The notes beneath the pieces were generated by a model. The model saw only the letters and a program-made list of their open reading frames with translations. It was not told where the DNA came from and made no database searches. A stretch of 64,000 bases of DNA from a virus. A program made the translations under genes and the position numbers. The number at the start of each line of letters is the position of its first letter. The first letter of the stretch is position 1. Positions 4,631-13,035 of this stretch are shown here, piece by piece. The stretch lies in the IMG/VR virus record IMGVR_UViG_3300025872_000037, positions 64,088-128,087 of that record. One strand, given 5' to 3'.

Positions 4631-4858
4631 GTGTATACCCACAACGCCACCACCGCCCGACTCATTGCGGCAGGCATCTTGCCTGATCCCAACTTCGTTC
4701 CTCGCGAGACCAAGGTCAACCGGTTTGGCGTGATGATCTGGGACCACAAGACCGCCGGGCATTGTCAGGTCCTCTCCGGCGAGAGCTGGAAGCAGGCCCG
4801 CAAGTACAACGTCCCCCGCAAGGGTTTCAGCTCGGTCGTCAAGTCGATCACCGGTTAA
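4631..4858 (+). CDS. Hypothetical protein
   Basis: GTG start 2 nt after the previous stop, in frame with ORF 4517-4858. Confidence 0.55.
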   Translation: MYTHNATTARLIAAGILPDPNFVPRETKVNRFGVMIWDHKTAGHCQVLSGESWKQARKYNVPRKGFSSVVKSITG

Positions 4859-4864
4859 TCCGTT

Positions 4865-4940
4865 GGTCGCGTAGCCCAACGGCAGAGGCAGGAGACTTAA
4901 AATCTCTTCAGTGTGGGTTCGAATCCCACCGCGACTACCA
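4865..4940 (+). tRNA. tRNA-Leu(UAA), short variable loop
   Basis: GGTCGCG/CGCGACT acceptor, GGAGA-CTTAAAA-TCTCT, TTCGAAT T-loop, encoded CCA. Confidence 0.85.
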
Positions 4941-4945
4941 TCACC

Positions 4946-5596
4946 ATGGTACCTGTAGATCCATCAGAGAAGACAACTCTCGTACTCAACCGAAACTACC
5001 AGTCAAGCGGTAGGTTCTTCACCGCGCGCGCCGCCATTCGTCACATGATGAATGGCCGAGTCAAGGGGCTTGATGCCGTGGGTAACTGCGCATCCTGGAA
5101 CGGTGACGAGGTGACAGAGGTCGAGGGCTACTCGAATAGCCTGAGCTGGGCGGATCTGACGGTTGAACTGTACCATGACCAGCCTTGCCTTCGGTCAGCA
5201 CCTAACGTCGTGACCGGAGAGGAGACTCAGTGGCCGGTGCCGACCATCGTGGTCTGTACCCATCATTTCGGTTATCATGCCAGGTTAGGCCAGAACGTGT
5301 CCCTGAAGACCATCTATGGCCTTTACAAGGGAGTCTGCCAGTACTGTCTTCAGAAAGTTCCTTTCTCAGCATCCACCAAGGACCATGTCTATCCAAAGTC
5401 CATGGGTGGTACAAATGACCAGCAGAACATTGTGCTGGCATGCCGGTCCTGCAATTCGGCCAAGGACAACTCGTACCCTTACCTAAACGTCAATGGTGAA
5501 GAGGTCAGACCGAGGTCAGCCCACCATTTCCTCAGTATGATCCCTGATGGGATGCAGATGCGAGAGGAATGGAAACAATTTTTGTTCGTTCACTAA
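4946..5596 (+). CDS. HNH endonuclease (McrA-like)
   Basis: TLVLNRNY N-terminus, CQYC, TKDHVYPKSMGG, NIVLACRSCNSAK. ATG at 4946 just after the tRNA CCA. Confidence 0.85.
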   Translation: MVPVDPSEKTTLVLNRNYQSSGRFFTARAAIRHMMNGRVKGLDAVGNCASWNGDEVTEVEGYSNSLSWADLTVELYHDQPCLRSAPNVVTGEETQWPVPTIVVCTHHFGYHARLGQNVSLKTIYGLYKGVCQYCLQKVPFSASTKDHVYPKSMGGTNDQQNIVLACRSCNSAKDNSYPYLNVNGEEVRPRSAHHFLSMIPDGMQMREEWKQFLFVH

Positions 5597-5633
5597 TCTT
5601 TTTTGTTTACAACGGTCAGAAAACATGATTGAG

Positions 5634-5641
5634 TATAAATA
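5634..5641 (+). promoter_or_regulatory. T4 late promoter heading the RNA island
   Basis: TATAAATA. Confidence 0.65.
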
Positions 5642-5649
5642 ATCAAATC

Positions 5650-5757
5650 TTGAAAAGCTTCAAACAAACCACAGACTCAAATACGTCAATCCGACCAACA
5701 ATCGGATGGGCACCTGTCTGTGGCCGCAATGAAGCCGCATTCGGGGGTTCGAAATAG
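5650..5757 (+). CDS. Putative attenuator leader peptide (35 aa)
   Basis: TTG start, MKSFKQTTDSNTSIRPTIGWAPVCGRNEAAFGGSK*; the stop lies within the 5' arm of an antiterminator hairpin. Confidence 0.55.
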   Translation: MKSFKQTTDSNTSIRPTIGWAPVCGRNEAAFGGSK

Positions 5758-5783
5758 AGATCACAATTTAGATCTCTTCTTCG

Positions 5784-5818
5784 AACCTCTGAACCAAAAG
5801 TTCAGAGGTTTTTAGTTT
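5784..5818 (+). terminator. Intrinsic terminator, mutually exclusive with antiterminator 5744-5789
   Basis: AACCTCTGAAC-CAAAA-GTTCAGAGGTT followed by TTTAGTTT. Confidence 0.85.
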
Positions 5819-5929
5819 CACCGCCAGACTCCGGCTTCAAGGAGTCCAAACGACCGACATAGGGGGATCCAATCCGCGCCCTGAAAGCGCGATAGGGACC
5901 GAAGCAATTCGTTCTTTTTAGATAAAACC

Positions 5930-5967
5930 GAGCGGCCCCGGACGCTCATTAAAATAATTCGCCGGGC
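5930..5967 (+). ncRNA. Small H-type pseudoknot RNA, unknown family
   Basis: GAGCG/CGCTC stem; loop CCCGG pairs with CCGGG after an A-rich linker. Confidence 0.45.
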
Positions 5968-5972
5968 TTCTT

Positions 5973-6035
5973 TCCTGCCTGCACTGAAGTACGGGTTCAT
6001 TCCGAGAAGCAGAAATGCTCTAGGTGCAGGTGGGA
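5973..6035 (+). ncRNA. Small multi-stem RNA, unknown family
   Basis: Closing stem TCCTGCCTGCAC/GTGCAGGTGGGA with an internal GCA-GAAA-TGC hairpin. Confidence 0.45.
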
Positions 6036-6042
6036 CTATTTT

Positions 6043-6107
6043 GCGGCCAGTTTCGACTGGCAGGTGCAACCGCAGTAACGGGTTCTGCGCAAACAAAAAC
6101 CCGGCCA
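6043..6107 (+). ncRNA. UUCG hairpin plus pseudoknot RNA, unknown family
   Basis: GCCAGT-TTCG-ACTGGC; CGCAG/CTGCG stem whose loop CGGGTT pairs with AACCCG. Confidence 0.45.
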
Positions 6108-6109
6108 AT

Positions 6110-6267
6110 TTCCCGAAGCACGATTCGGACTCACAGATAGGTTGAAGATGGCAATGTAGCTTTGCCACCGATCTCACTGTCATCCTCATAACCCACACCG
6201 CGGGGCTACACGGTGTGGTGTCTTACTGAGGTGACTGAGCTCGGCCTCGTAAAGCTGTGAGCGGGAA
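6110..6267 (+). ncRNA. Multibranch RNA with kissing loops, unknown family
   Basis: TTCCCG/CGGGAA and CTCACAG/CTGTGAG closing stems; loops TGTAGC (6155) and GCTACA (6205) are complementary. Confidence 0.5.
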
Positions 6268-6275
6268 TTCATTTT

Positions 6276-6350
6276 GCCCTTGTAGCTCAGTGGTAGAGCG
6301 CCAGTTTTGTAAACTGGATGTCGTCGGTTCAAGCCCGACCGGGGGCTCCA
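6276..6350 (+). tRNA. tRNA-Thr(UGU)
   Basis: CCAGT-TTTGTAA-ACTGG anticodon arm, cloverleaf, CCA. Confidence 0.95.
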
Positions 6351-6436
6351 TTTTCGTCCGCTTGTCTAGCGGGTTCGACGCGGTCGGTGCGATACGGTCC
6401 GCGATACCAAAAGCCTTAACCGTGTCGCCAATTTAT

Positions 6437-6564
6437 CTCCGAGAGAGGGTGAGTGAACACCTCCGTTAGCGGTAGAACTTCAATGATGCTAACGGGTATG
6501 AGCCACACGAAGTAGAGAATTGAAGCTCGAACGTGTTATAGCAGCTTAATCAGCTGCCTCGGAG
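6437..6564 (+). ncRNA. Five-way junction RNA with kissing loops, unknown family
   Basis: CTCCGAG/CTCGGAG closes four hairpins; loops CTTCAAT (6478) and ATTGAAG (6519) are complementary. Confidence 0.55.
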
Positions 6565-6571
6565 TCCCTTT

Positions 6572-6646
6572 GAGTGTGTAGTGTAACGGTCAGCACCGGC
6601 TAGCCTGCGGGCCCTGTGAGTGCGGGTTCGACTCCCGTCACACTCA
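6572..6646 (+). tRNA. tRNA-like element with non-canonical anticodon arm (pseudo-tRNA)
   Basis: Intact acceptor GAGTGTG/CACACTC, D-arm and GGTTCGACTCC T-arm; no 7-nt anticodon loop with U33; no CCA. Confidence 0.6.
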
Positions 6647-6658
6647 ATTCATTTCTGC

Positions 6659-6735
6659 GCGCCAGTGTCGTTGAACGGTTAAACAGCTGTCTGCAAAGCA
6701 GCAAAATGCAGGTTCGATTCCTGTCTGGCGCTCCA
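6659..6735 (+). tRNA. tRNA-Cys(GCA)
   Basis: GCTGT-CTGCAAA-GCAGC, U73 discriminator, CCA; D-arm irregular. Confidence 0.85.
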
Positions 6736-6741
6736 ATTTAC

Positions 6742-6833
6742 GGAAGAGTGGCTGAGTGGGTTAAGGCAACGGTCTTGAAAACCGTCGTGGCGTATAGTCG
6801 TCACCGTGAGTTCGAATCTCACCTCTTCCGCCA
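6742..6833 (+). tRNA. tRNA-Ser(UGA)
   Basis: ACGGT-CTTGAAA-ACCGT, long variable arm, GCCA end. Confidence 0.95.
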
Positions 6834-6982
6834 TTTTATAGAGAGTTAAGGGCACTGCTACCGGACGATCGCGGTAGGTTCACGTAGCTTAATAAGCACA
6901 CATAGCTAAACACTCTCTTCTTTTTAGCCTCCACTTGAGGGTGAACCACAGAGCTGGGGTAGATGAATCCAGCAGGCTATTT

Positions 6983-7066
6983 GCACTAGTGATGGAACGG
7001 CAGACATGAAAGTCTTAGAAGCTTTTGCCGCGAGGCGTACAGGTTCAAGTCCTGTCTAGTGCACCA
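6983..7066 (+). tRNA. tRNA-Leu(UAG)
   Basis: AAAGT-CTTAGAA-GCTTT, long variable arm, ACCA end. Confidence 0.95.
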
Positions 7067-7075
7067 ACAATTTTA

Positions 7076-7151
7076 GGGCCATTAGCTCATTTGGCAGAGC
7101 GCCTGATTTGCATTCAGGAGGTGAGCGGTTCGACCCCGCTATGGTCCACCA
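7076..7151 (+). tRNA. tRNA-Ala(UGC)
   Basis: CCTGA-TTTGCAT-TCAGG; G3:U70 pair. Confidence 0.95.
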
Positions 7152-7154
7152 CTT

Positions 7155-7264
7155 TGGTGTAGGGTTAAGACGGTTCGAATCCGTCGTCGCCTTTGGATCG
7201 GCGCTAGTAAACCGTTTTGGACAAGGCGAGCGCTCGCTGATAAGGTTCGAACCCTTACACACCA
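7155..7264 (+). ncRNA. tRNA-like RNA with two T-arms
   Basis: GACGG-TTCGAAT-CCGTC and TAAGG-TTCGAAC-CCTTA within a TGGTGT/ACACCA closing stem. Confidence 0.55.
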
Positions 7265-7349
7265 ATCTATTCCTGCTGGGGCTCTGATCAGAGCGCGCAT
7301 AACGAGGAGCATCACCTCGAGAGTCCACGAACAGCAGGATTCAATTTAT

Positions 7350-7420
7350 GCCGGCACGGTCAATCGCGAGACTGGTTAAAATCAGACGAGAGTGTACTGA
7401 TACCGAAAATGCCGGCACCA
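7350..7420 (+). ncRNA. Acceptor-stem/CCA minihelix-like RNA
   Basis: GCCGGCA/TGCCGGC 7-bp stem plus ACCA; no D or T arms. Confidence 0.5.
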
Positions 7421-7428
7421 ATTTCTAC

Positions 7429-7503
7429 ACGGACGTGGTACATTAGTAGTGCAGCAGTCTCCAAAACTGCCTTATGGGGGTGCGATTCCCTCCGTCCGTG
7501 CCA
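7429..7503 (+). tRNA. tRNA-Trp(CCA)
   Basis: GCAGT-CTCCAAA-ACTGC, G73, CCA; T-loop TGCGATT is atypical. Confidence 0.85.
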
Positions 7504-7509
7504 TTTTAC

Positions 7510-7586
7510 GGGGTGGTAGCTCAGCTGGTTAGAGCGTCTGCCTGTCACGCAGAAGGTCGCGGGATCGAGGCCCGTCCATCCCGCCA
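7510..7586 (+). tRNA. tRNA-Asp(GUC)
   Basis: TCTGC-CTGTCAC-GCAGA, GCCA end. Confidence 0.9.
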
Positions 7587-7591
7587 TTTTT

Positions 7592-7666
7592 GCCGCCATC
7601 GTCTAACGGTCAGGACAGCGGGTTTTCATCTCGCTAATCGGGGTTCGATTCCCCGTGGTGGTACCA
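7592..7666 (+). tRNA. tRNA-Glu(UUC)
   Basis: GCGGG-TTTTCAT-CTCGC, CCA. Confidence 0.9.
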
Positions 7667-7699
7667 TTTTTACGTATGTTATAAATAGGTCATAAGTTT

Positions 7700-8140
7700 A
7701 TGACCAAAAACGAAAAAATTAGTCAAGCATTAAAGAAGCGTTTTAGCAAACAGCCGCATCACAAAAAAGGTAAAGCTGGTAAAAAGCACGATAAAATCGC
7801 AAAGCAAAAAATACGCGAAGCTTTAATAAAACATTATGATTCTGCAGGAAGAATGTCCGATGCGCAGAAAAAAGCACGCAATAAAGCTAATGTTTATGCT
7901 TACAGAGCTAGAAAACGAAATGCGATACCAGAAAATGCAAATTTAGCTCTAATAAAACTAATTTATGAAAAATGTCCAGAAGGTTATCACGTAGATCATA
8001 TAATTGCATTGGCATCTGGAGGTCTACACCATCAAGATAATCTTCAATATTTACCTATTGCGGAAAATTGCCGCAAAGGTAAAAGCAATAATTACAATTC
8101 TTCTTTAGCCAAAGATTGGCGAGATTTTATTGGCATGTAG
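7700..8140 (+). CDS. HNH homing endonuclease inserted in the tRNA cluster
   Basis: YHVDHIIALASGGLHHQDNLQYL..ENCRK; basic N-terminus; AT-rich; own TATAAATA at 7680-7687. Confidence 0.85.
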   Translation: MTKNEKISQALKKRFSKQPHHKKGKAGKKHDKIAKQKIREALIKHYDSAGRMSDAQKKARNKANVYAYRARKRNAIPENANLALIKLIYEKCPEGYHVDHIIALASGGLHHQDNLQYLPIAENCRKGKSNNYNSSLAKDWRDFIGM

Positions 8141-8205
8141 TTCAATGGTAGAACCCGCGACTGTTAATCGCGCAATTGGTTGTTCGACTCAACCCATGCC
8201 AGCCA
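8131..8205 (+). tRNA. tRNA-Asn(GUU)
   Basis: CGCGA-CTGTTAA-TCGCG, GCCA end. Confidence 0.9.
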
Positions 8206-8215
8206 GTTTATTTTT

Positions 8216-8292
8216 CGGCGCGTAGCACAGCCTGGTAGTGCACTTGCTTTGGGAGCAAGCCGTCGGGGGTTCGAATCCCTCCGCGCCGACCA
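8216..8292 (+). tRNA. tRNA-Pro(UGG)
   Basis: CTTGC-TTTGGGA-GCAAG, C1-G72, ACCA end. Confidence 0.95.
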
Positions 8293-8299
8293 TTTTCGA

Positions 8300-8374
8300 T
8301 GGCCCATTGTGTAATGGTTAGCACAGCTGACTTTGACTCAGCTAGTTGGGGTTCGAGTCCCTGTGGGCCAGCCA
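8300..8374 (+). tRNA. tRNA-Gln(UUG)
   Basis: GCTGA-CTTTGAC-TCAGC, U1-A72, GCCA end. Confidence 0.95.
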
Positions 8375-8484
8375 ATTTGAGCAGAGTCCTAGCTGTTCGT
8401 AAAACAGGAGCCGGTGTGATCGGTATTGCCGTTGTTCAGCGGGTAACCGTGCGCGGGAGAATCGGGTGCTGCTCTTTTTACTTT

Positions 8485-8580
8485 ATGAAAAAACCTGAAA
8501 ACTTATCACAGATCCTTCTAGTTATCCTGGCGGTCATCGCCGATATTTTCTTAATCGTAAACGTCATCCATCACTGGTGA
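8485..8580 (+). CDS. Small single-TM protein (31 aa)
   Basis: MKKPENLSQILLVILAVIADIFLIVNVIHHW. Confidence 0.5.
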   Translation: MKKPENLSQILLVILAVIADIFLIVNVIHHW

Positions 8581-8581
8581 C

Positions 8582-8722
8582 ATGATCACTCGTCTCGTTC
8601 AATTAGTGTTTCTTTCCGTTCTCATTCCGGCTGCGATCTCAGCATTTTTGATCGTGGCCGTTACGTTAACTGCAAGCATCGTGGTAGGATTTCTGGTCCT
8701 ATTCCACAGATTGCTCTCGTAG
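8582..8722 (+). CDS. Small hydrophobic membrane protein (46 aa)
   Basis: MITRLVQLVFLSVLIPAAISAFLIVAVTLTASIVVGFLVLFHRLLS; starts 1 nt after the previous stop. Confidence 0.5.
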   Translation: MITRLVQLVFLSVLIPAAISAFLIVAVTLTASIVVGFLVLFHRLLS

Positions 8723-8728
8723 CTTCTT

Positions 8729-8804
8729 GGTCCTGTAGCTCAATGGTCAGAGCAGAGGACTCATAATCCTTTGGTTGTGGGTTCAAGTCCCACCGGGACC
8801 ACCA
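8729..8804 (+). tRNA. tRNA(CAU), probably Ile2 (lysidine type) or elongator Met
   Basis: GAGGA-CTCATAA-TCCTT; C4-G69 and C5-G68 as in TilS substrates. Confidence 0.85.
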
Positions 8805-8819
8805 TATATACTTTTGTAC

Positions 8820-8895
8820 GCGGTAGTAGCTCAGTTGGTAGAGCGCCATCCTTCCAAGCTGGTTGTCGCAGGTTCGAATCCTGTCTGCCGCTCCA
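8820..8895 (+). tRNA. tRNA-Gly(UCC)
   Basis: CTTCCAA loop, GCG acceptor start, U73, CCA. Confidence 0.95.
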
Positions 8896-8904
8896 ATTTA
8901 CTTG

Positions 8905-8981
8905 GTCCTCGTAGCTCAACCGGAAAGAGCACCGTTTTTCTAAATCGGTGGTTGTGGGTTCGAGTCCCGCCGTGGACGCCA
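8905..8981 (+). tRNA. tRNA-Arg(UCU)
   Basis: CCGTT-TTTCTAA-ATCGG, GCCA end; two stem mismatches. Confidence 0.85.
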
Positions 8982-9077
8982 TTTTGACTTTGCGAGGAAT
9001 CGCAAATGGTGGAGGGGTAATCCCAACACCCCCTGGAAGTGGGAAGCGCATACTTAAATCACGCTTAACTAATTTTT

Positions 9078-9454
9078 GGGCCTGTTCTGGATTCTATTCA
9101 GTGACAGACTTATTGTAAGCAAGCATGGTTGCTGGACCATTCAACATCAGCAAAAACACAAACGGCATCTCAAATGTCATCGAGGCGATCTTCGGTACTC
9201 GTACCGAGGAGCTTCAGCTCGCAGCCTAAGAAACTGTGACCGACACGTCGTCCGATTCTCGCTGAGTCGACGGTCGTCATCAAGCGAGACTGATCTTCGA
9301 GAATTGTGGCTCGGTAGAAGAATCAGTACACTCTAGCCATTACGCCAGGAGAGTTGATAGCGACAGCTCCTGGCATGATCACAGCTATCTAAGCTTGTAG
9401 AAAACGATCGGAAAAGCACTGAACACACGGGTTCGACTCCCGTCAGGTCCACCA
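9078..9454 (+). ncRNA. ssrA: tmRNA
   Basis: GGGCCTG/CAGGTCC-ACCA with G3:U70, T-arm GGGTTCGACTCCC; tag reading frame 9164-9229 GISNVIEAIFGTRTEELQLAA*. Confidence 0.92.
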
Positions 9455-9661
9455 CTATTCCTTCGGTAACTTACGAAGGCAGACTAATCCCTCGACGAAG
9501 ACTACCTCAAACCTGTCGCCGTCCTCAACTCTGAGCATGGCGGGTGTGAGTTCTTCATCAAAGAAAAGTGAGCCATCAGTGGTAAGTCTGAGGTCGTATC
9601 CGTGGAATCTCATGGGTGTTCCTTTCTATTTATGAAATGCTTAGAATTCGTTCACTTTTTT

Positions 9662-9690
9662 GTTTACAGGGTCATGCGGCAGTGTATGAT
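9662..9690 (+). promoter_or_regulatory. Early-type promoter followed by a boxA-like element
   Basis: GTTTAC-N17-TATGAT; TGTTCTTTTTCAA at 9708-9720; only non-coding sequence follows. Confidence 0.7.
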
Positions 9691-9725
9691 CTGATCATAG
9701 TCAATTTTGTTCTTTTTCAACTTTT

Positions 9726-9970
9726 GTGACGGAATAAGCCTTTTCCTTAGGGCTAACGTATAACCACGGTGAAGAACCGCGGTTAGTTCCGGGACTTGTA
9801 AGTAAGTAAGGTACTACGCTGAGGCCTAGGTTGGCCAACCGAAGCTACCAGAGGTACGGGTTGTAAGCATGAAATATCATGATATGGCGACTCGTTACGG
9901 TGCGACGGCACCATCTGACTGAATAACTGAAGGCAAGTTCCCCGGATGGAGGTAATCATTAGTCCTCCCA
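9726..9970 (+). ncRNA. About 245-nt structured RNA, unknown family
   Basis: Long-range CCGGGACTTG/CAAGTTCCCGG, several hairpins, terminal GGAGG...CCTCC-CA hairpin; no credible ORF. Confidence 0.55.
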
Positions 9971-10001
9971 ATTTTTACTTTCGAGGCTTGATCTCCTCGA
10001 A

Positions 10002-10124
10002 ACCCTCTCCCTTAGCAGCATTCACTAATCTATTGTCTGCACGGATGTTCGGTAGGGAACAAATGCTGGTAATGATGAAATAGACATCGGCTGGCACTAC
10101 ACGACAACGCTACTGTGAGAGGGT
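10002..10124 (+). ncRNA. Structured RNA, unknown family
   Basis: ACCCTCTC/GAGAGGGT closing stem with internal CAGCATT/AATGCTG. Confidence 0.45.
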
Positions 10125-10219
10125 ACTCTTTCATCATACTCGACTAGGCGAGTCTAAATAGAAGAATAGGCCTAGTGCGGCAGATGCATCAGTGCGTAGC
10201 GCAAAGTGCATCTGCGACT

Positions 10220-10360
10220 TGCCACGCCACAGCTCCGGTGAGCTCAGGATTAAAGCTAAAAGCGCTGTGTGAATAAACACGAGGACAAAAATTGGCTAAT
10301 GTATATCTCATATGGCCGATAAATAAATCTCGTTGCGATAAGATATTCGCCAGCGTGGCA
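10220..10360 (+). ncRNA. Multibranch RNA with kissing loops, unknown family
   Basis: TGCCACGC/GCGTGGCA; loops ATATCT (10303) and AGATAT (10341) are complementary. Confidence 0.5.
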
Positions 10361-10386
10361 CCTCTTTCAAGTTCTTTTCAATTTAT

Positions 10387-10461
10387 TGCAGTGTGGAGCA
10401 GTGGCAGCTCGCTTGGCTCATAACCAAGAGGTCAGGGGTTCGATTCCCTTCTCTGCACCCA
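10387..10461 (+). tRNA. tRNA-Met(CAU), initiator-like
   Basis: GGAGCAG..GCTCG D-arm (A11-U24), CTTGG-CTCATAA-CCAAG; only two of the three G-C anticodon-stem pairs. Confidence 0.85.
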
Positions 10462-10849: not shown

Positions 10850-12361
10850 ATGCGTAATAACACACATAATAATCCAAACCTGAAGAACGGATTGCTTATC
10901 AGCATTCTTTTCTTCTTTTTTGCAGCTTCAGCAGCAGCGCTCCCAAGCACTGGTGCTTCTAACCTCCAGACAACTCCTGGAGTAACGTTCACGCAGTCGG
11001 GTTCGACGCTGGCGTTTAATGCCCCGGATCGGGCGATTCTGAACTGGAACAACTTTGGTTCCGGTACAGATCATATCGCGGTTGCTGACACTATCAGGTA
11101 TAATCTTCCTGGTGCTGCAGCATCGGTCCTTAACATCGTTTCCGGTGGTGCACAGACCACGATCAACGGAACGATTGAATCAAACGGAAAAGTTTACGTG
11201 CTAAATCCAAACGGCATCGTGATCGGTGGCACCTCACGCATCGATACCAATGCATTTGTTGCTAGCGCAGTGGACAATCCATTTGCTGCACAGTTCAAGT
11301 ACATGGCTGATGGAGTTATTCCTTCAGAGGTGGGTGGACAGCGTACTGCAAATGGTAACGTTGTTGCTCAAACTGGTGCAATCTTTGCAACTCCTAATGT
11401 GGTCATTCTTGGCAAGGATATCACCATCGGTGGTGTCTTGACTGCCGGAAATATGCTGCTTGGTGGAGATGGCGCAGTGGTCGTTGGTGGTGCAGCATCA
11501 ACCACGTGGGTTTCTGGTGATTTGACAATCACTAATCCTACTGGCACAACTACGATTGGAGTTCCTACCGCTAACGTCGGCACCAATAATGCTATTTCCG
11601 TCATTTCGACATCTGGCGATATTACTAATGCTATTGGTTCTCGTGTTCTAGGAAAGAATCTGATCGCTAACACTGTTAGTGGTAATGTCACACTTGCCGC
11701 TGTTGCTACAAGCGCAGTCACTGCAAATGGCAAGAACGTCACAGTTGCATTTGACGCCGGATCACTCACACCAAGCTTCTCGGGATCTGCAGTCACTGGC
11801 CTAACAGTCACTGCTCCTGCTTATCTGCTCTTAGCTGATGTCAAGGGCGACGCTGCCAATAACAGCTTCACAGCTGGTGGCACACTGACTCTTGGCAAGG
11901 TTCATCTGGGCGGTAGCGCATCCTTCACGGGATCTCGTGTAGTTGACTCGGTTGACAGCGTATTCGTCTATGACCGTACGTCATTCTCCGCCACCGCTGG
12001 AGATGTTGCAGTTACCAAGGCTGGTCACAGCTTCGGCCCTCTGTCGATCTCTGCCACTGGCAATGGTACTGTCTATGAGAATGCTACGATCAATCTCAAT
12101 GCTGTGAACGTCAAGGAGCTTGTCCTGAAGACAAAGGAAGCATTCTTCCAGACTCCTAACACCTTCGCTCTGACAGCCACGAAGTTCTCGCTCGATACTC
12201 TCGGCGCAGTCACCTTCACCGGCGGTACGATCTCGAACGGTCTGACGATCAATGCAGGATCAGGTAACGTTGACCTGAGCAAGCTAAGCCTCGTCACCAA
12301 TCTGAATAGCGTTGCTCCAGTTGTCACCACAACCGGTACGGTTGCTAACCCAGCTCAATAA
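10850..12361 (+). CDS. Secreted beta-helix protein with filamentous-haemagglutinin N-terminal (TPS) domain
   Basis: Signal peptide; ILNWNNF, VLNIVSG, INGTIESNGKVYVLNPNGIVIG (NPNG motif); Gly/Thr/Ala-rich beta repeats. Confidence 0.85.
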   Translation: MRNNTHNNPNLKNGLLISILFFFFAASAAALPSTGASNLQTTPGVTFTQSGSTLAFNAPDRAILNWNNFGSGTDHIAVADTIRYNLPGAAASVLNIVSGGAQTTINGTIESNGKVYVLNPNGIVIGGTSRIDTNAFVASAVDNPFAAQFKYMADGVIPSEVGGQRTANGNVVAQTGAIFATPNVVILGKDITIGGVLTAGNMLLGGDGAVVVGGAASTTWVSGDLTITNPTGTTTIGVPTANVGTNNAISVISTSGDITNAIGSRVLGKNLIANTVSGNVTLAAVATSAVTANGKNVTVAFDAGSLTPSFSGSAVTGLTVTAPAYLLLADVKGDAANNSFTAGGTLTLGKVHLGGSASFTGSRVVDSVDSVFVYDRTSFSATAGDVAVTKAGHSFGPLSISATGNGTVYENATINLNAVNVKELVLKTKEAFFQTPNTFALTATKFSLDTLGAVTFTGGTISNGLTINAGSGNVDLSKLSLVTNLNSVAPVVTTTGTVANPAQ

Positions 12362-13035
12362 TGAATAAGCTCATCGCGCTGTTCCTCGCCACTGCAGCCA
12401 TTTCACAGGCTGCTTTGGCTCCTGCTAATTATGGTACTCTGACAGTCGGTTACCGCGAGAAGGATATCACCTTCGGTCGTGTTTCTAGCCGTCAGGGAGC
12501 TTATGTCGCCGATGCTGCTTTCAAGTGGGAAAGTTTCCGGATGAATGCAGTAATGCAGAACAACGTTTCTCTCAAGGATTCCGGTCTTTATCAGGCCGAT
12601 CTTATCGGAGGTTACTCGTTCTTTTCTACGCTTGCTAATGTCGAGCTCGGTACAAAGTACGTCACGAAGTTCAAGGCTGATCCAAAAGATCGGATGAATC
12701 ACTGGCGTCCATTTGTTACAGTCGGTAACTCCTGGTTGGCAGTCACTGCGACAGCTGATCTTGAGGCTCAAACCACGAACATCGAAGGCAAGGTCTCAAA
12801 GACACTTCCTCTGTTCTTAGGCCTTAGCAGCACCACTGCTCTATCAGCCGGTTATACCGATGTCAATGATGCCCTTCCTCGTACTCTGAAGGAAGTCAAG
12901 TACACCAATGCGTACTACGGCGGATCCTTCGATATCACCTGGAAGATTGCTACTGCAGGTATCTACGTCCTGCACGATGGTATCAAGAAGGAATGGTCAG
13001 CTGGCTGGAGAGCCGGAACTACAATCCGCTTCTAA
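12361..13035 (+). CDS. Putative outer-membrane beta-barrel protein
   Basis: Signal peptide, alternating amphipathic strands, C-terminal Phe (GTTIRF). Confidence 0.7.
   Translation: MNKLIALFLATAAISQAALAPANYGTLTVGYREKDITFGRVSSRQGAYVADAAFKWESFRMNAVMQNNVSLKDSGLYQADLIGGYSFFSTLANVELGTKYVTKFKADPKDRMNHWRPFVTVGNSWLAVTATADLEAQTTNIEGKVSKTLPLFLGLSSTTALSAGYTDVNDALPRTLKEVKYTNAYYGGSFDITWKIATAGIYVLHDGIKKEWSAGWRAGTTIRF

Follow-up and report, generated by a model that had tools for sequence, protein, structure and literature searches.

A candidate leader-peptide attenuator ahead of a tRNA and tmRNA gene island in a freshwater T4-like phage

The leader-peptide attenuators of enterobacterial amino-acid operons include trpL, hisL, pheL, leuL and thrL. 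In these systems (PMC1183508, PMC3082878), a short leader frame rich in codons linked to the operon's product precedes an antiterminator that excludes an intrinsic terminator, and the position of the ribosome picks the hairpin that forms. The phage element described here resembles them in layout, with a putative leader frame, a proposed part for the ribosome and a codon bias that may relate to the product. It differs in what it would control (phage RNA genes, namely tRNAs, a tmRNA and others, rather than biosynthetic enzymes), in its codons (a scattered ACA/TCA/CCA/GCA bias in place of tandem regulatory codons) and in its stop codon, which lies inside the 5' arm of the antiterminator.

In mycobacteria, stalling on the whiB7 uORF is thought to cause antitermination, and this switch is described as responding when many different amino acids, tRNAs or tRNA synthetases are depleted (PMC10274678). 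The whiB7 uORF varies in sequence between species and keeps a compositional bias, as the phage leaders do (alanine there; A-ending Thr, Ser, Pro and Ala codons here), but it controls a transcription-factor gene of a bacterium and is experimentally supported (PMC10274678), whereas the phage element precedes RNA genes and is known from sequence. The two have no sequence relation. In vmlR of Bacillus subtilis, a leader frame and a terminator/antiterminator likewise turn slowed translation into read-through (PMC9226507); switches of this type respond to drug-stalled ribosomes and control resistance proteins, whereas the phage leaders have no recognisable arrest motif. A precedent for a cis-acting RNA proposed to regulate a phage tmRNA comes from Melnitz, a T4-like phage of aquatic bacteria in which a glutamine riboswitch adjoins the tmRNA gene (PMC9004378). 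The Melnitz sensor is a ligand-binding aptamer (the glnA motif), whereas the present element has no Rfam riboswitch match and an unconserved sensor sequence.

A literature search, conducted mostly outside subscription journals, turned up no paper that describes this kind of control for tRNA genes. The usual view of phage tRNA genes is that they are constitutively expressed accessories and adjust the supply of codons; a newer one is that they replace host tRNAs cut by defence nucleases (PMC10264068, PMC11555353).

The element was found in a 64,000-nucleotide stretch of DNA (the whole of which is called the window below) from a freshwater T4-like phage, in which T4-like baseplate genes are present. 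From 5' to 3', the order is promoter box, short frame, antiterminator hairpin, terminator and RNA genes:

5606-5611, plus strand: TTTACA, possible -35 hexamer of an early sigma-70-like promoter (low confidence)
5634-5641, plus strand: putative T4-type late-promoter box TATAAATA, named from motif enrichment and its same place in relatives
5650-5757, plus strand: predicted leader reading frame of 35 sense codons, with a TTG start and the stop TAG at 5755-5757
5657-5735, plus strand: hairpin 1, a branched-free label for the stem-loop nested within the leader frame (-28.9 kcal/mol)
5740-5793, plus strand: antiterminator hairpin, with 5' arm 5740-5762 (which holds the stop), loop 5763-5770 and 3' arm 5771-5793 (-32.3 kcal/mol)
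5783-5813, plus strand: predicted intrinsic terminator, with stem 5783-5794/5800-5811, loop 5795-5799 and T-run 5809-5813 (-17.3 kcal/mol)
5820-5973, plus strand: conserved structured RNA of about 150 nt, the first gene behind the terminator, conserved in 27 of 27 distinct relatives
6276-10461, plus strand: RNA island with 16 tRNA genes, a one-piece tmRNA, structured spacers and one HNH gene
9078-9454, plus strand: the one-piece tmRNA within the island

The late promoter claimed by the initial annotation is borne out at the level of motif: TATAAATA is present at the position given above and is enriched in the window (9 copies against 2.17 expected; at least 9 in 0 of 100 shuffles). Either TATAAATA or GATAAATA occupies the same place in 19 of the 21 element-bearing relatives; L085 and L105 have a sigma-70-like promoter instead. 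The T4 late promoter is described as an 8-bp TATA box about one helical turn 5' of the start site (PMC2988020), and the box at 5634-5641 is a candidate for a promoter of this type. Relatives also carry TTTAC(A/T) or TGTA(C/T)A, a spacing of 16-17 nt and TAnnAT directly 5' of a (T/G)ATAAATA box. In the window the -10 partner of TTTACA is degenerate and a consensus scan of the 5606 region detected no sigma-70-type site; an early promoter there is proposed with low confidence.

Downstream, the conserved RNA starts about 7 nt past the T-run of the terminator, and 9 of its 27 predicted pairs are changed on both sides among relatives. In the window no promoter was found between the terminator and the RNA genes behind it, and 5634-6275 gave no Rfam match at E <= 1, riboswitches and T-box included. 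A riboswitch, T-box or known small RNA was rejected on this result; a riboswitch or T-box core also disagrees with the failure of the lineages to align upstream of 5779 by blastn and with the different loops of hairpin 1. The island is presumed to be a regulated unit at least in part; internal promoters are likely, and its HNH gene has its own TATAAATA at 7680.

The comparison set comprised 27 distinct relatives, each with the conserved RNA that follows the element. The leader and overlapping hairpins, whose conservation in relatives the initial annotation had named as a check, recur before the RNA island: promoter, frame, antiterminator and terminator occur together in 21 of the 27, which span 8 lineages. 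The arrangement named there as contrary evidence, a terminator retained after loss of the frame or antiterminator, was not found among the 27; where the element is missing, in 6 relatives, terminator, frame and antiterminator are all absent, and a promoter directly adjoins the conserved downstream RNA. Between lineages, blastn aligns only 5779-5830, the rest having diverged with its layout kept. L002 and L003, which are closest to the window (89-94% identity upstream), do not have the element, so it is dispensable. A contig from an RNA library corresponds to a relative without the element, skipping from 5598 to 5814 with 46 other letters between; contigs from four RNA runs were compared with 5400-6700, and none spans 5620-5795.

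Covariance model R1, run over 1,086,468 bases, gave 23 sense matches, all at known places and with no second copy; its other 21 matches are the opposite strand of the same hairpins, and it missed L085 and L105. A distant blastn search with 4800-6400 against phage records matched 160 records through tRNA genes only (about 5% of the query), none of them over the element. A degenerate pattern made from the window's hairpin had 0 matches in viral contigs, because relatives change the stem sequence. Sixty more distant loci hold 6 tRNA arrays and 89 other terminator-like hairpins, 2 of which (of 89) show the combined arrangement: that at L053, upstream of a tRNA array, is a candidate, and that at L029 is likely a false match.

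The RNA between promoter and downstream gene is predicted to be strongly folded. Over 5644-5818 the predicted energy is -63.7 kcal/mol, compared with -35.65 +/- 3.59 in 200 shuffled versions, none of which is as stable (z -7.8). The perfect 11-bp terminator stem of the initial annotation was found at 5784-5794/5800-5810 and becomes 12 bp with G5783-U5811. Its mutually exclusive hairpins were likewise confirmed, with an overlap larger than first stated: the two exclude each other because both use 5783-5793, so that the antiterminator covers 11 of the 12 nt of the terminator 5' arm in the window. In 21 of 21 copies, a hairpin that can form before the terminator 3' arm pairs 8-11 of the 9-12 nt of the terminator 5' arm. 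Across these copies the antiterminator (-17.1 to -40.0 kcal/mol) is stabler than the terminator (-12.1 to -18.7 kcal/mol), and folds of the whole leader adopt the antiterminator form in 6 of 9 representatives and the terminator form in 3. Termination may be rare, the antiterminator being much the stabler of the two in these folding models.

Compensatory change was counted in alignment A3, which holds 9 of the 21 element-bearing sequences. L085, L105, L113 and L114 were left out because MAFFT alignments A1 and A2 misplaced their 5' arm, and L007, L014, L022, L101, L112, L099, L102 and L027 because they are identical or nearly so to a kept row over this region; lineages left out were judged by their own folds. 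The antiterminator helix has 23 pairs, with 87.4% of 207 cells paired and 11 pairs changed on both sides; no shuffle of 500 reached the observed values, and pairing drops to 34-49% when the 3' partners are slid by 1-3 columns. The terminator helix has 11 pairs, 2 of them changed on both sides, with 100% of 99 cells paired. The partner of position 5790 is 5743 in the first fold and 5804 in the second, and in L120 all three are changed compatibly; L085 and L105 have a different triple, GGGUUU/AAACCC/GGGUUU. From this comparative evidence, the predicted terminator/antiterminator switch is the best-supported part of the element.

A hairpin of different sequence stands at the place of hairpin 1 in 9 of 9 representatives, with loops that differ in every lineage. 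The window's hairpin 1 has a z of -4.6, with 0 of 300 shuffles equally stable; in 5 of the 9 representatives, equal stability is reached by no more than 3 of 300 shuffles, and stability is not significant in L007, L023 and L113. Hairpin 1 may be a pause or timing structure. It closes on itself and in none of the 9 representatives shares bases with 5740-5793; no anti-antiterminator (1:2) pairing was seen.

The initial annotation had described a 35-codon leader at 5650-5757. Its length and stop are right; its start codon is TTG and not ATG. The frame reads TTG AAA AGC ... GGT TCG AAA TAG, and the window leader contains no in-frame ATG or GTG and no Shine-Dalgarno sequence. The latter is uninformative, because only 18 of the 109 genes of this genome have a core Shine-Dalgarno. 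In all 20 copies other than the window's, a frame of 23-30 codons begins at the first ATG past the promoter box; this ATG lies 5-18 nt from the box, and 5-9 nt from it in most lineages. The non-window frames have 7 different lengths, with the stop at a fixed place in the antiterminator 5' arm. In 21 of 21 copies the stop is 11-20 nt inside that arm and 26-36 nt ahead of the terminator stem; in the 20 non-window copies it is 56-69 nt ahead of the end of the U-run.

When the intervening sequence is shuffled, the chance of such a frame and stop is 0.004-0.16 per representative, the lineages being not fully independent; probabilities combined over lineages are overstated by this shared ancestry. 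Openness alone is weak evidence, because stops are scarce in the region's other frames as well. Judged across the compared sequences, the leader frame is kept beyond chance. The peptides are unlike one another, and the same nucleotides are read in different frames across lineages: by this comparison the kept feature is "a frame", as in regulatory leaders, rather than a peptide sequence.

With the ATG 5-9 nt past the box, the mRNA of most lineages would be leaderless or nearly so. At the 5' end of the leader, the first 7 nt or so are unpaired and are followed by a CA-rich tract. CA repeats are reported to boost leaderless or near-leaderless translation, and UUG to work poorly on leaderless mRNA in E. 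coli (PMC9031893). The window's TTG is about 3 nt from the predicted transcription start. Because TTG is the only start available and is poor on leaderless mRNA, the window copy may be weakly translated or degenerate.

The codon content of the leader was also re-examined. The leader has no run of one amino acid, as noted initially, and no tandem regulatory codons; as also stated there, it uses 16 amino acids and holds codons read by 11 of the island tRNAs. As a set, the codons of these 11 tRNAs fail to stand out, with 107 of 238 in the leader frame and 78 and 98 in the other frames, and their presence mostly reflects base composition. A narrower group behaves differently: ACA/TCA/CCA/GCA codons occur 54 times in the leader frame, compared with 14 and 18 times in the other frames, and all 9 representatives have their highest count in the leader frame. 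Of the 76 NCN codons of the leaders, 49 (64%) belong to this group, compared with 30.5% in the 109 phage genes (p = 1e-9). Every leader holds 5-7 of them, and at least 5 occur in only 4.8% of random 26-codon gene windows.

The island encodes tRNAs that match this bias, namely tRNA-Thr(UGU), Ser(UGA), Ala(UGC) and Pro(UGG), and codons cognate to ten island U34 tRNAs account for 70 of 212 leader codons versus 15.4% genome-wide. A single Trp codon is in frame in 8 of 9 leaders (TGG: 8 in frame, 1 and 6 in the other frames). The proposal of a general stalling sensor is therefore narrowed: the leader is not codon-neutral, its frame being enriched for A-ending Thr, Ser, Pro and Ala codons. Because these are read by island tRNAs, the leader looks more like a sensor of A-ending-codon decoding capacity than a fully general one, as far as codon composition can tell.

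We consider it somewhat probable that the element is a ribosome-mediated (leader-peptide) transcription attenuator before an island of RNA genes, and transcription of the RNA block is probably tuned to the translation state of the ribosomes. Transcription would begin a few nt ahead of the short frame. On RNA free of ribosomes, hairpin 5740-5793 would form first and mask the terminator 5' arm, letting the polymerase read into the island. A ribosome keeping pace with the polymerase would reach the stop at 5755-5757 and, because the stop lies inside the antiterminator 5' arm, would occupy that arm; by geometry it would cover this arm but not the terminator. The freed 3' arm could then pair with 5800-5811, forming the terminator and ending transcription at about 5813. 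Slow or failed translation of the leader would thus leave the island on. Since the leader favours A-ending Thr, Ser, Pro and Ala codons, which U34 tRNAs of the island read, the loop would work as negative feedback on decoding capacity. Of the trp/his-type attenuation invoked initially, the architecture and its covariation are kept in 21 of 27 relatives, and the 1:2 hairpin of the narrow trp type is absent; with no such pairing, absent translation should give read-through and not super-attenuation. We infer leader translation, terminator function, the direction of the switch and its physiological trigger.

A more specific and more tentative version, which we regard as possible though doubtful, is that the leader acts as a homeostat of decoding capacity. 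Its A-ending codons would need the U34 tRNAs encoded just behind it: where these tRNAs are scarce or damaged, ribosomes would lag and the island would be transcribed, and where they are plentiful, transcription would stop at 5813. Scarcity or damage could come from early infection, starvation or cleavage by host anticodon nucleases, and the induced island would supply tRNAs together with tmRNA, the rescuer of stalled ribosomes.

The switch could be real and yet be set by something other than a ribosome, such as an RNA-binding protein of phage or host, another RNA, folding kinetics or temperature, with the frame incidental or secondary. Such a switch would agree with the terminator/antiterminator being the best-supported part, with a hairpin 1 whose structure is kept as its sequence changes (as in a protein-binding or pause site), with the missing ATG in the window leader and with a leader region generally poor in stops. 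We nevertheless think it unlikely: the first ATG is in phase with the fixed-place stop in 20 of 20 non-window copies over 7 frame lengths, and a frame-specific bias among synonymous codons is not expected of non-translated RNA. A presumed sensor region almost without conserved bases is also unlike a ligand- or tRNA-binding aptamer, in keeping with the lack of an Rfam family at E <= 1, riboswitches and T-box included. Quite improbable, in our judgement, is a self-contained small gene, for a mini-protein or a small RNA of some 165 nt, that has a promoter of its own and an ordinary terminator. Leaky read-through or other promoters would then supply the island, and the long hairpin would serve stability or processing, for example as an RNase III site. 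The unpaired CA-rich 5' end, hairpins and U-tailed terminator do resemble those typical of small RNAs in bacteria, relatives have the element as a module or not at all, and terminated attenuator RNAs can act in trans, as described for rnTrpL (PMC6614838). An ordinary terminator, however, should not be masked by a stronger covarying hairpin in every lineage, and the element-less copies have their promoter exactly where none lies here, between terminator and conserved RNA. The unconserved peptide sequences argue against a functional mini-protein, and the frame and its codon bias against a purely non-coding RNA.

That the arrangement arose by chance, or is a remnant of the neighbouring HNH homing endonuclease or a decayed tRNA with no regulatory role, we regard as highly implausible. 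Several of the 18 terminator-like hairpins of this genome show sizeable chance overlap with an upstream fold; the window's overlap is the top-ranked of the 18, and the case for more than chance rests on the relatives. The closest of these lack the element, and GGTTCGAA resembles a T-loop. Against this stands the retention of the whole element, with compensatory changes, in 8 lineages. A decayed tRNA was rejected in its own right: ARAGORN and Rfam find none, and relatives swap GGTTCGAA with the pairing kept.

If the leader-peptide attenuator is real, phages measure translation and dose their tRNAs and tmRNA accordingly, and attenuation, known for amino-acid and resistance genes, extends to RNA genes. 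If the leader is also a homeostat, its regulatory codons would report on tRNA supply itself, and the element could in addition be an inducible answer to tRNA-targeting defence. The leader switch, if true, would offer a testable handle on the timing of phage tRNA and tmRNA synthesis and the reasons for it.

The window is taken from an uncultured virus record of 128,087 bases (completeness estimate 76%), of which it forms the second half. It carries T4-like baseplate and tail genes and is contained in DNA runs labelled as freshwater metagenomes. The octamer TATAAATA, described as the T4-type late-promoter box (PMC2988020), occurs 9 times in the window (2.17 copies expected). The RNA island (+ strand, 4865-10461) comprises 17 tRNA-type genes and a one-piece tmRNA.

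Features of the element and of the RNA island in the window
4913-5596, HNH endonuclease gene (Pfam HNH match), embedded in the tRNA island
5634-5641, + strand, TATAAATA box, one of the 9 copies, just 3' of the HNH endonuclease gene ending at 5596
5650 to stop TAG at 5755-5757, + strand, leader frame, read from the sequence
5740-5762 (5' arm, stop codon inside) and 5771-5793 (3' arm), antiterminator hairpin, predicted fold
5783-5794 with 5800-5811, then a T-run, predicted terminator stem
5820-5973, conserved structured RNA of ~150 nt, directly 3' of the putative attenuator, in 27/27 distinct relatives
7700-8140, second HNH-like gene, embedded in the tRNA island, with its own TATAAATA at 7680
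9078-9454, one-piece tmRNA (91.8 bits), tag peptide GISNVIEAIFGTRTEELQLAA

A Pfam search of the 7700-8140 gene returned no match, and it is called HNH-like from a reading of its sequence alone. The tmRNAs of relatives have tags different from GISNVIEAIFGTRTEELQLAA. For the conserved RNA at 5820-5973, both-side changes are found in 9 of 27 predicted pairs, and an Rfam search yielded no family at E <= 1. The island also contains a Pistol ribozyme match (10138-10197; 36.9 bits against an Rfam gathering score of 34.5; E 0.00048) and a tRNA-like gene at 6571-6647 to which ARAGORN assigns a four-base anticodon (cctg); the latter, which has a counterpart at 12845-12921 in the relative L007, could be a frameshift-type or other unusual tRNA. 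Just 5' of the tRNA-Thr, the region 6119-6265 is matched by near-identical contigs of ~150 nt from RNA libraries of three studies, with adapter letters adjoining 6125 and 6261. These give a weak hint of a discrete stable RNA of ~140 nt, weak because it comes from contigs only. Just past the island, 10850-13035 encodes a TPS (two-partner secretion) domain protein (Pfam PF05860, E 9.7e-14), next to which, downstream, lies a 224-aa protein without a Pfam match.

The box, frame, long hairpin and terminator described in the initial annotation were all recovered by direct reading of the sequence. The hairpins had been proposed to be mutually exclusive, and indeed 11 bases of the terminator's 12-base 5' arm also belong to the long hairpin. 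This overlap is the best among 18 terminator-like hairpins in the genome, several others of which overlap upstream folds by chance. The fold of 5644-5818 is far better than that of shuffled sequences (z -7.8; 0/200 as stable). The claimed 35-codon leader requires amendment: the frame at 5650-5757 is open, but its start codon is TTG, no in-frame ATG is present within it, and most of it sits in a strong hairpin (hairpin 1, 5657-5735).

Relatives were collected using the ClpP-like neighbour gene as a query (80 viral loci) and the conserved motif of the downstream RNA (22 viral and 23 metagenome stretches), leaving 27 distinct sequences after removal of duplicates. Between lineages, only 5779-5830 and the downstream RNA align in blastn. 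By reading, the layout of promoter box, ATG, short frame, hairpin 1, long hairpin, terminator and conserved RNA was identified in 21 of the 27 sequences, representing 8 lineages. All parts of the element are absent from the remaining six loci (L002, L003, L008, L017, L034 and L095), where a promoter adjoins the conserved RNA directly. Among the 27, the terminator never occurs unaccompanied by the frame and antiterminator, a pattern that the initial annotation had named as counting against its model. The element is an optional module, as L002 and L003, the two relatives closest to the window, do without it. Relative to window positions 5598-5814, these two phages and one contig from an RNA library (X15) carry a clean deletion that joins the promoter almost directly to the conserved RNA, a natural 'attenuator-less' control.

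Before the terminator 3' arm has been transcribed, the fold that can form in each of the 21 copies pairs 8-11 bases of the terminator 5' arm, which is 9-12 bases long. The antiterminator is the more stable structure (-17.1 to -40.0 kcal/mol, versus -12.1 to -18.7 kcal/mol for the terminator), and minimum-energy folds of the whole leader adopt the antiterminator form in 6 of 9 representatives and the terminator form in 3. The antiterminator helix comprises 23 pairs in a nine-sequence alignment; 87.4% of its cells are paired, and 11 pairs have both-side changes. None of 500 shuffles comes up to these values, and slid controls are paired at only 34-49%. The terminator helix is 100% paired in this alignment, and 2 of its pairs have both-side changes. 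Base 5790 has alternative partners, 5743 in the antiterminator and 5804 in the terminator, and the relative L120 is compatibly changed at all three positions. The overlap is also kept with an unrelated triple in L085/L105 and with another terminator arm in L113/L114. At the level of sequence comparison, alternative pairing of the antiterminator and the predicted terminator is established.

In 20/20 non-window copies, a frame of 23-30 codons begins at the first ATG 3' of the promoter box. Its end lies 11-20 nt into the antiterminator 5' arm; from there it is 26-36 nt to the terminator stem and 56-69 nt to where the U-run ends. Shuffling the box-to-arm sequence gives the same outcome with a probability of 0.004-0.16 per representative; the product of these values over lineages is tiny but exaggerates the strength of the case, given the lineages' shared ancestry. 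Because stop codons are also scarce in the region's other phases, openness by itself is weak evidence. Frame lengths differ by lineage (23, 25, 26, 27, 29, 30 and 35 codons), the peptides are dissimilar, and homologous nucleotides are read in different phases. With phase, length and peptide all variable, the conserved trait is apparently a translated frame ending in the antiterminator 5' arm, as in regulatory leaders.

Codon usage also bears on translation. The combined count of ACA, TCA, CCA and GCA is 54 in the leader frame versus 14 and 18 in the other two phases, and it is highest in the leader frame in 9/9 representatives. Thr/Ser/Pro/Ala family codons end in A in 49 of 76 cases in leaders (64%), compared to 30.5% in 109 genes of the phage (p = 1e-9), the first 30 codons of which show no such bias (7.4% NCA). 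Each leader has 5-7 of these four codons; at least 5 are found in 4.8% of random 26-codon gene windows. The four matching tRNAs are encoded by the island, ten tRNAs of which have U at position 34, and 70 of 212 leader codons are cognate to these ten (15.4% genome-wide). If the leader were not translated, such a frame-specific synonymous bias would be hard to explain. The proposal that the leader samples amino acids broadly is thereby refined to a preference, in frame, for island-served A-ending Thr/Ser/Pro/Ala codons; the wider set of island-read codons invoked initially is not frame-specific.

The leader's missing Shine-Dalgarno sequence carries no weight, since only 18 of 109 genes of the phage have a core one. 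In most lineages the ATG lies 5-9 nt past the box and is followed by a CA-rich unpaired tract, and the leader mRNA would be leaderless or nearly so. A review reports that CA repeats enhance both leadered and leaderless translation and that in E. coli UUG performs poorly as the start codon of a leaderless message (PMC9031893); for the latter reason the window's TTG copy may be translated weakly, which under the proposed mechanism would favour read-through.

If a protein or RNA, and not the ribosome, read the switch, the structures would be accounted for but the frame and its codon bias would not; this reading appears unlikely. That the region is a stand-alone small RNA or mini-protein gene is quite unlikely: the layout would suit such a gene, which leaves unexplained both a masked terminator kept by covariation and an RNA 7 nt downstream without a promoter. 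A chance arrangement or remnant is excluded by the comparison with relatives and is extremely improbable. Attenuation by a translating ribosome is partly supported, namely by the layout, overlap and frame kept in 21/27 relatives; translation and termination remain predictions. Under ribosome-mediated attenuation, the antiterminator would form in naked RNA and polymerase would proceed. A ribosome keeping pace would cover the antiterminator 5' arm at the stop codon, and the freed 3' arm would pair downstream to form the terminator. Slow decoding, a shortage of relevant tRNAs or general translation failure would then induce transcription of the conserved RNA together with the tRNAs and perhaps the tmRNA. 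The geometry is compatible with this, as the distance from the stop to the terminator stem is large enough that a terminating ribosome would leave the stem unmasked; terminators a few bases past a gene are reported to be repressed and to recover with distance (PMC4824070).

The element functionally resembles enterobacterial amino-acid attenuators and, more closely, the whiB7 uORF switch, which is described as responding to many amino acids, tRNAs and synthetases through a variable, compositionally biased uORF (PMC10274678). In contrast to both, it would control phage RNA genes and has neither tandem regulatory codons nor a trp-type anti-antiterminator. In our literature search, no account of tRNA genes under leader-peptide attenuation came up; a riboswitch has been proposed beside the tmRNA gene of phage Melnitz (PMC9004378). 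The same design in unrelated sequence is seen at 6340-6500 of L053, a more distant phage, where an ATG-initiated frame of 32 codons has its stop in the 5' arm or loop of an antiterminator, which masks 9/9 bases of a terminator arm. Next come a structured stretch, a small protein gene and, 620 nt downstream, a tRNA array. This candidate analogue suggests that the attenuator design extends beyond the window's clade.
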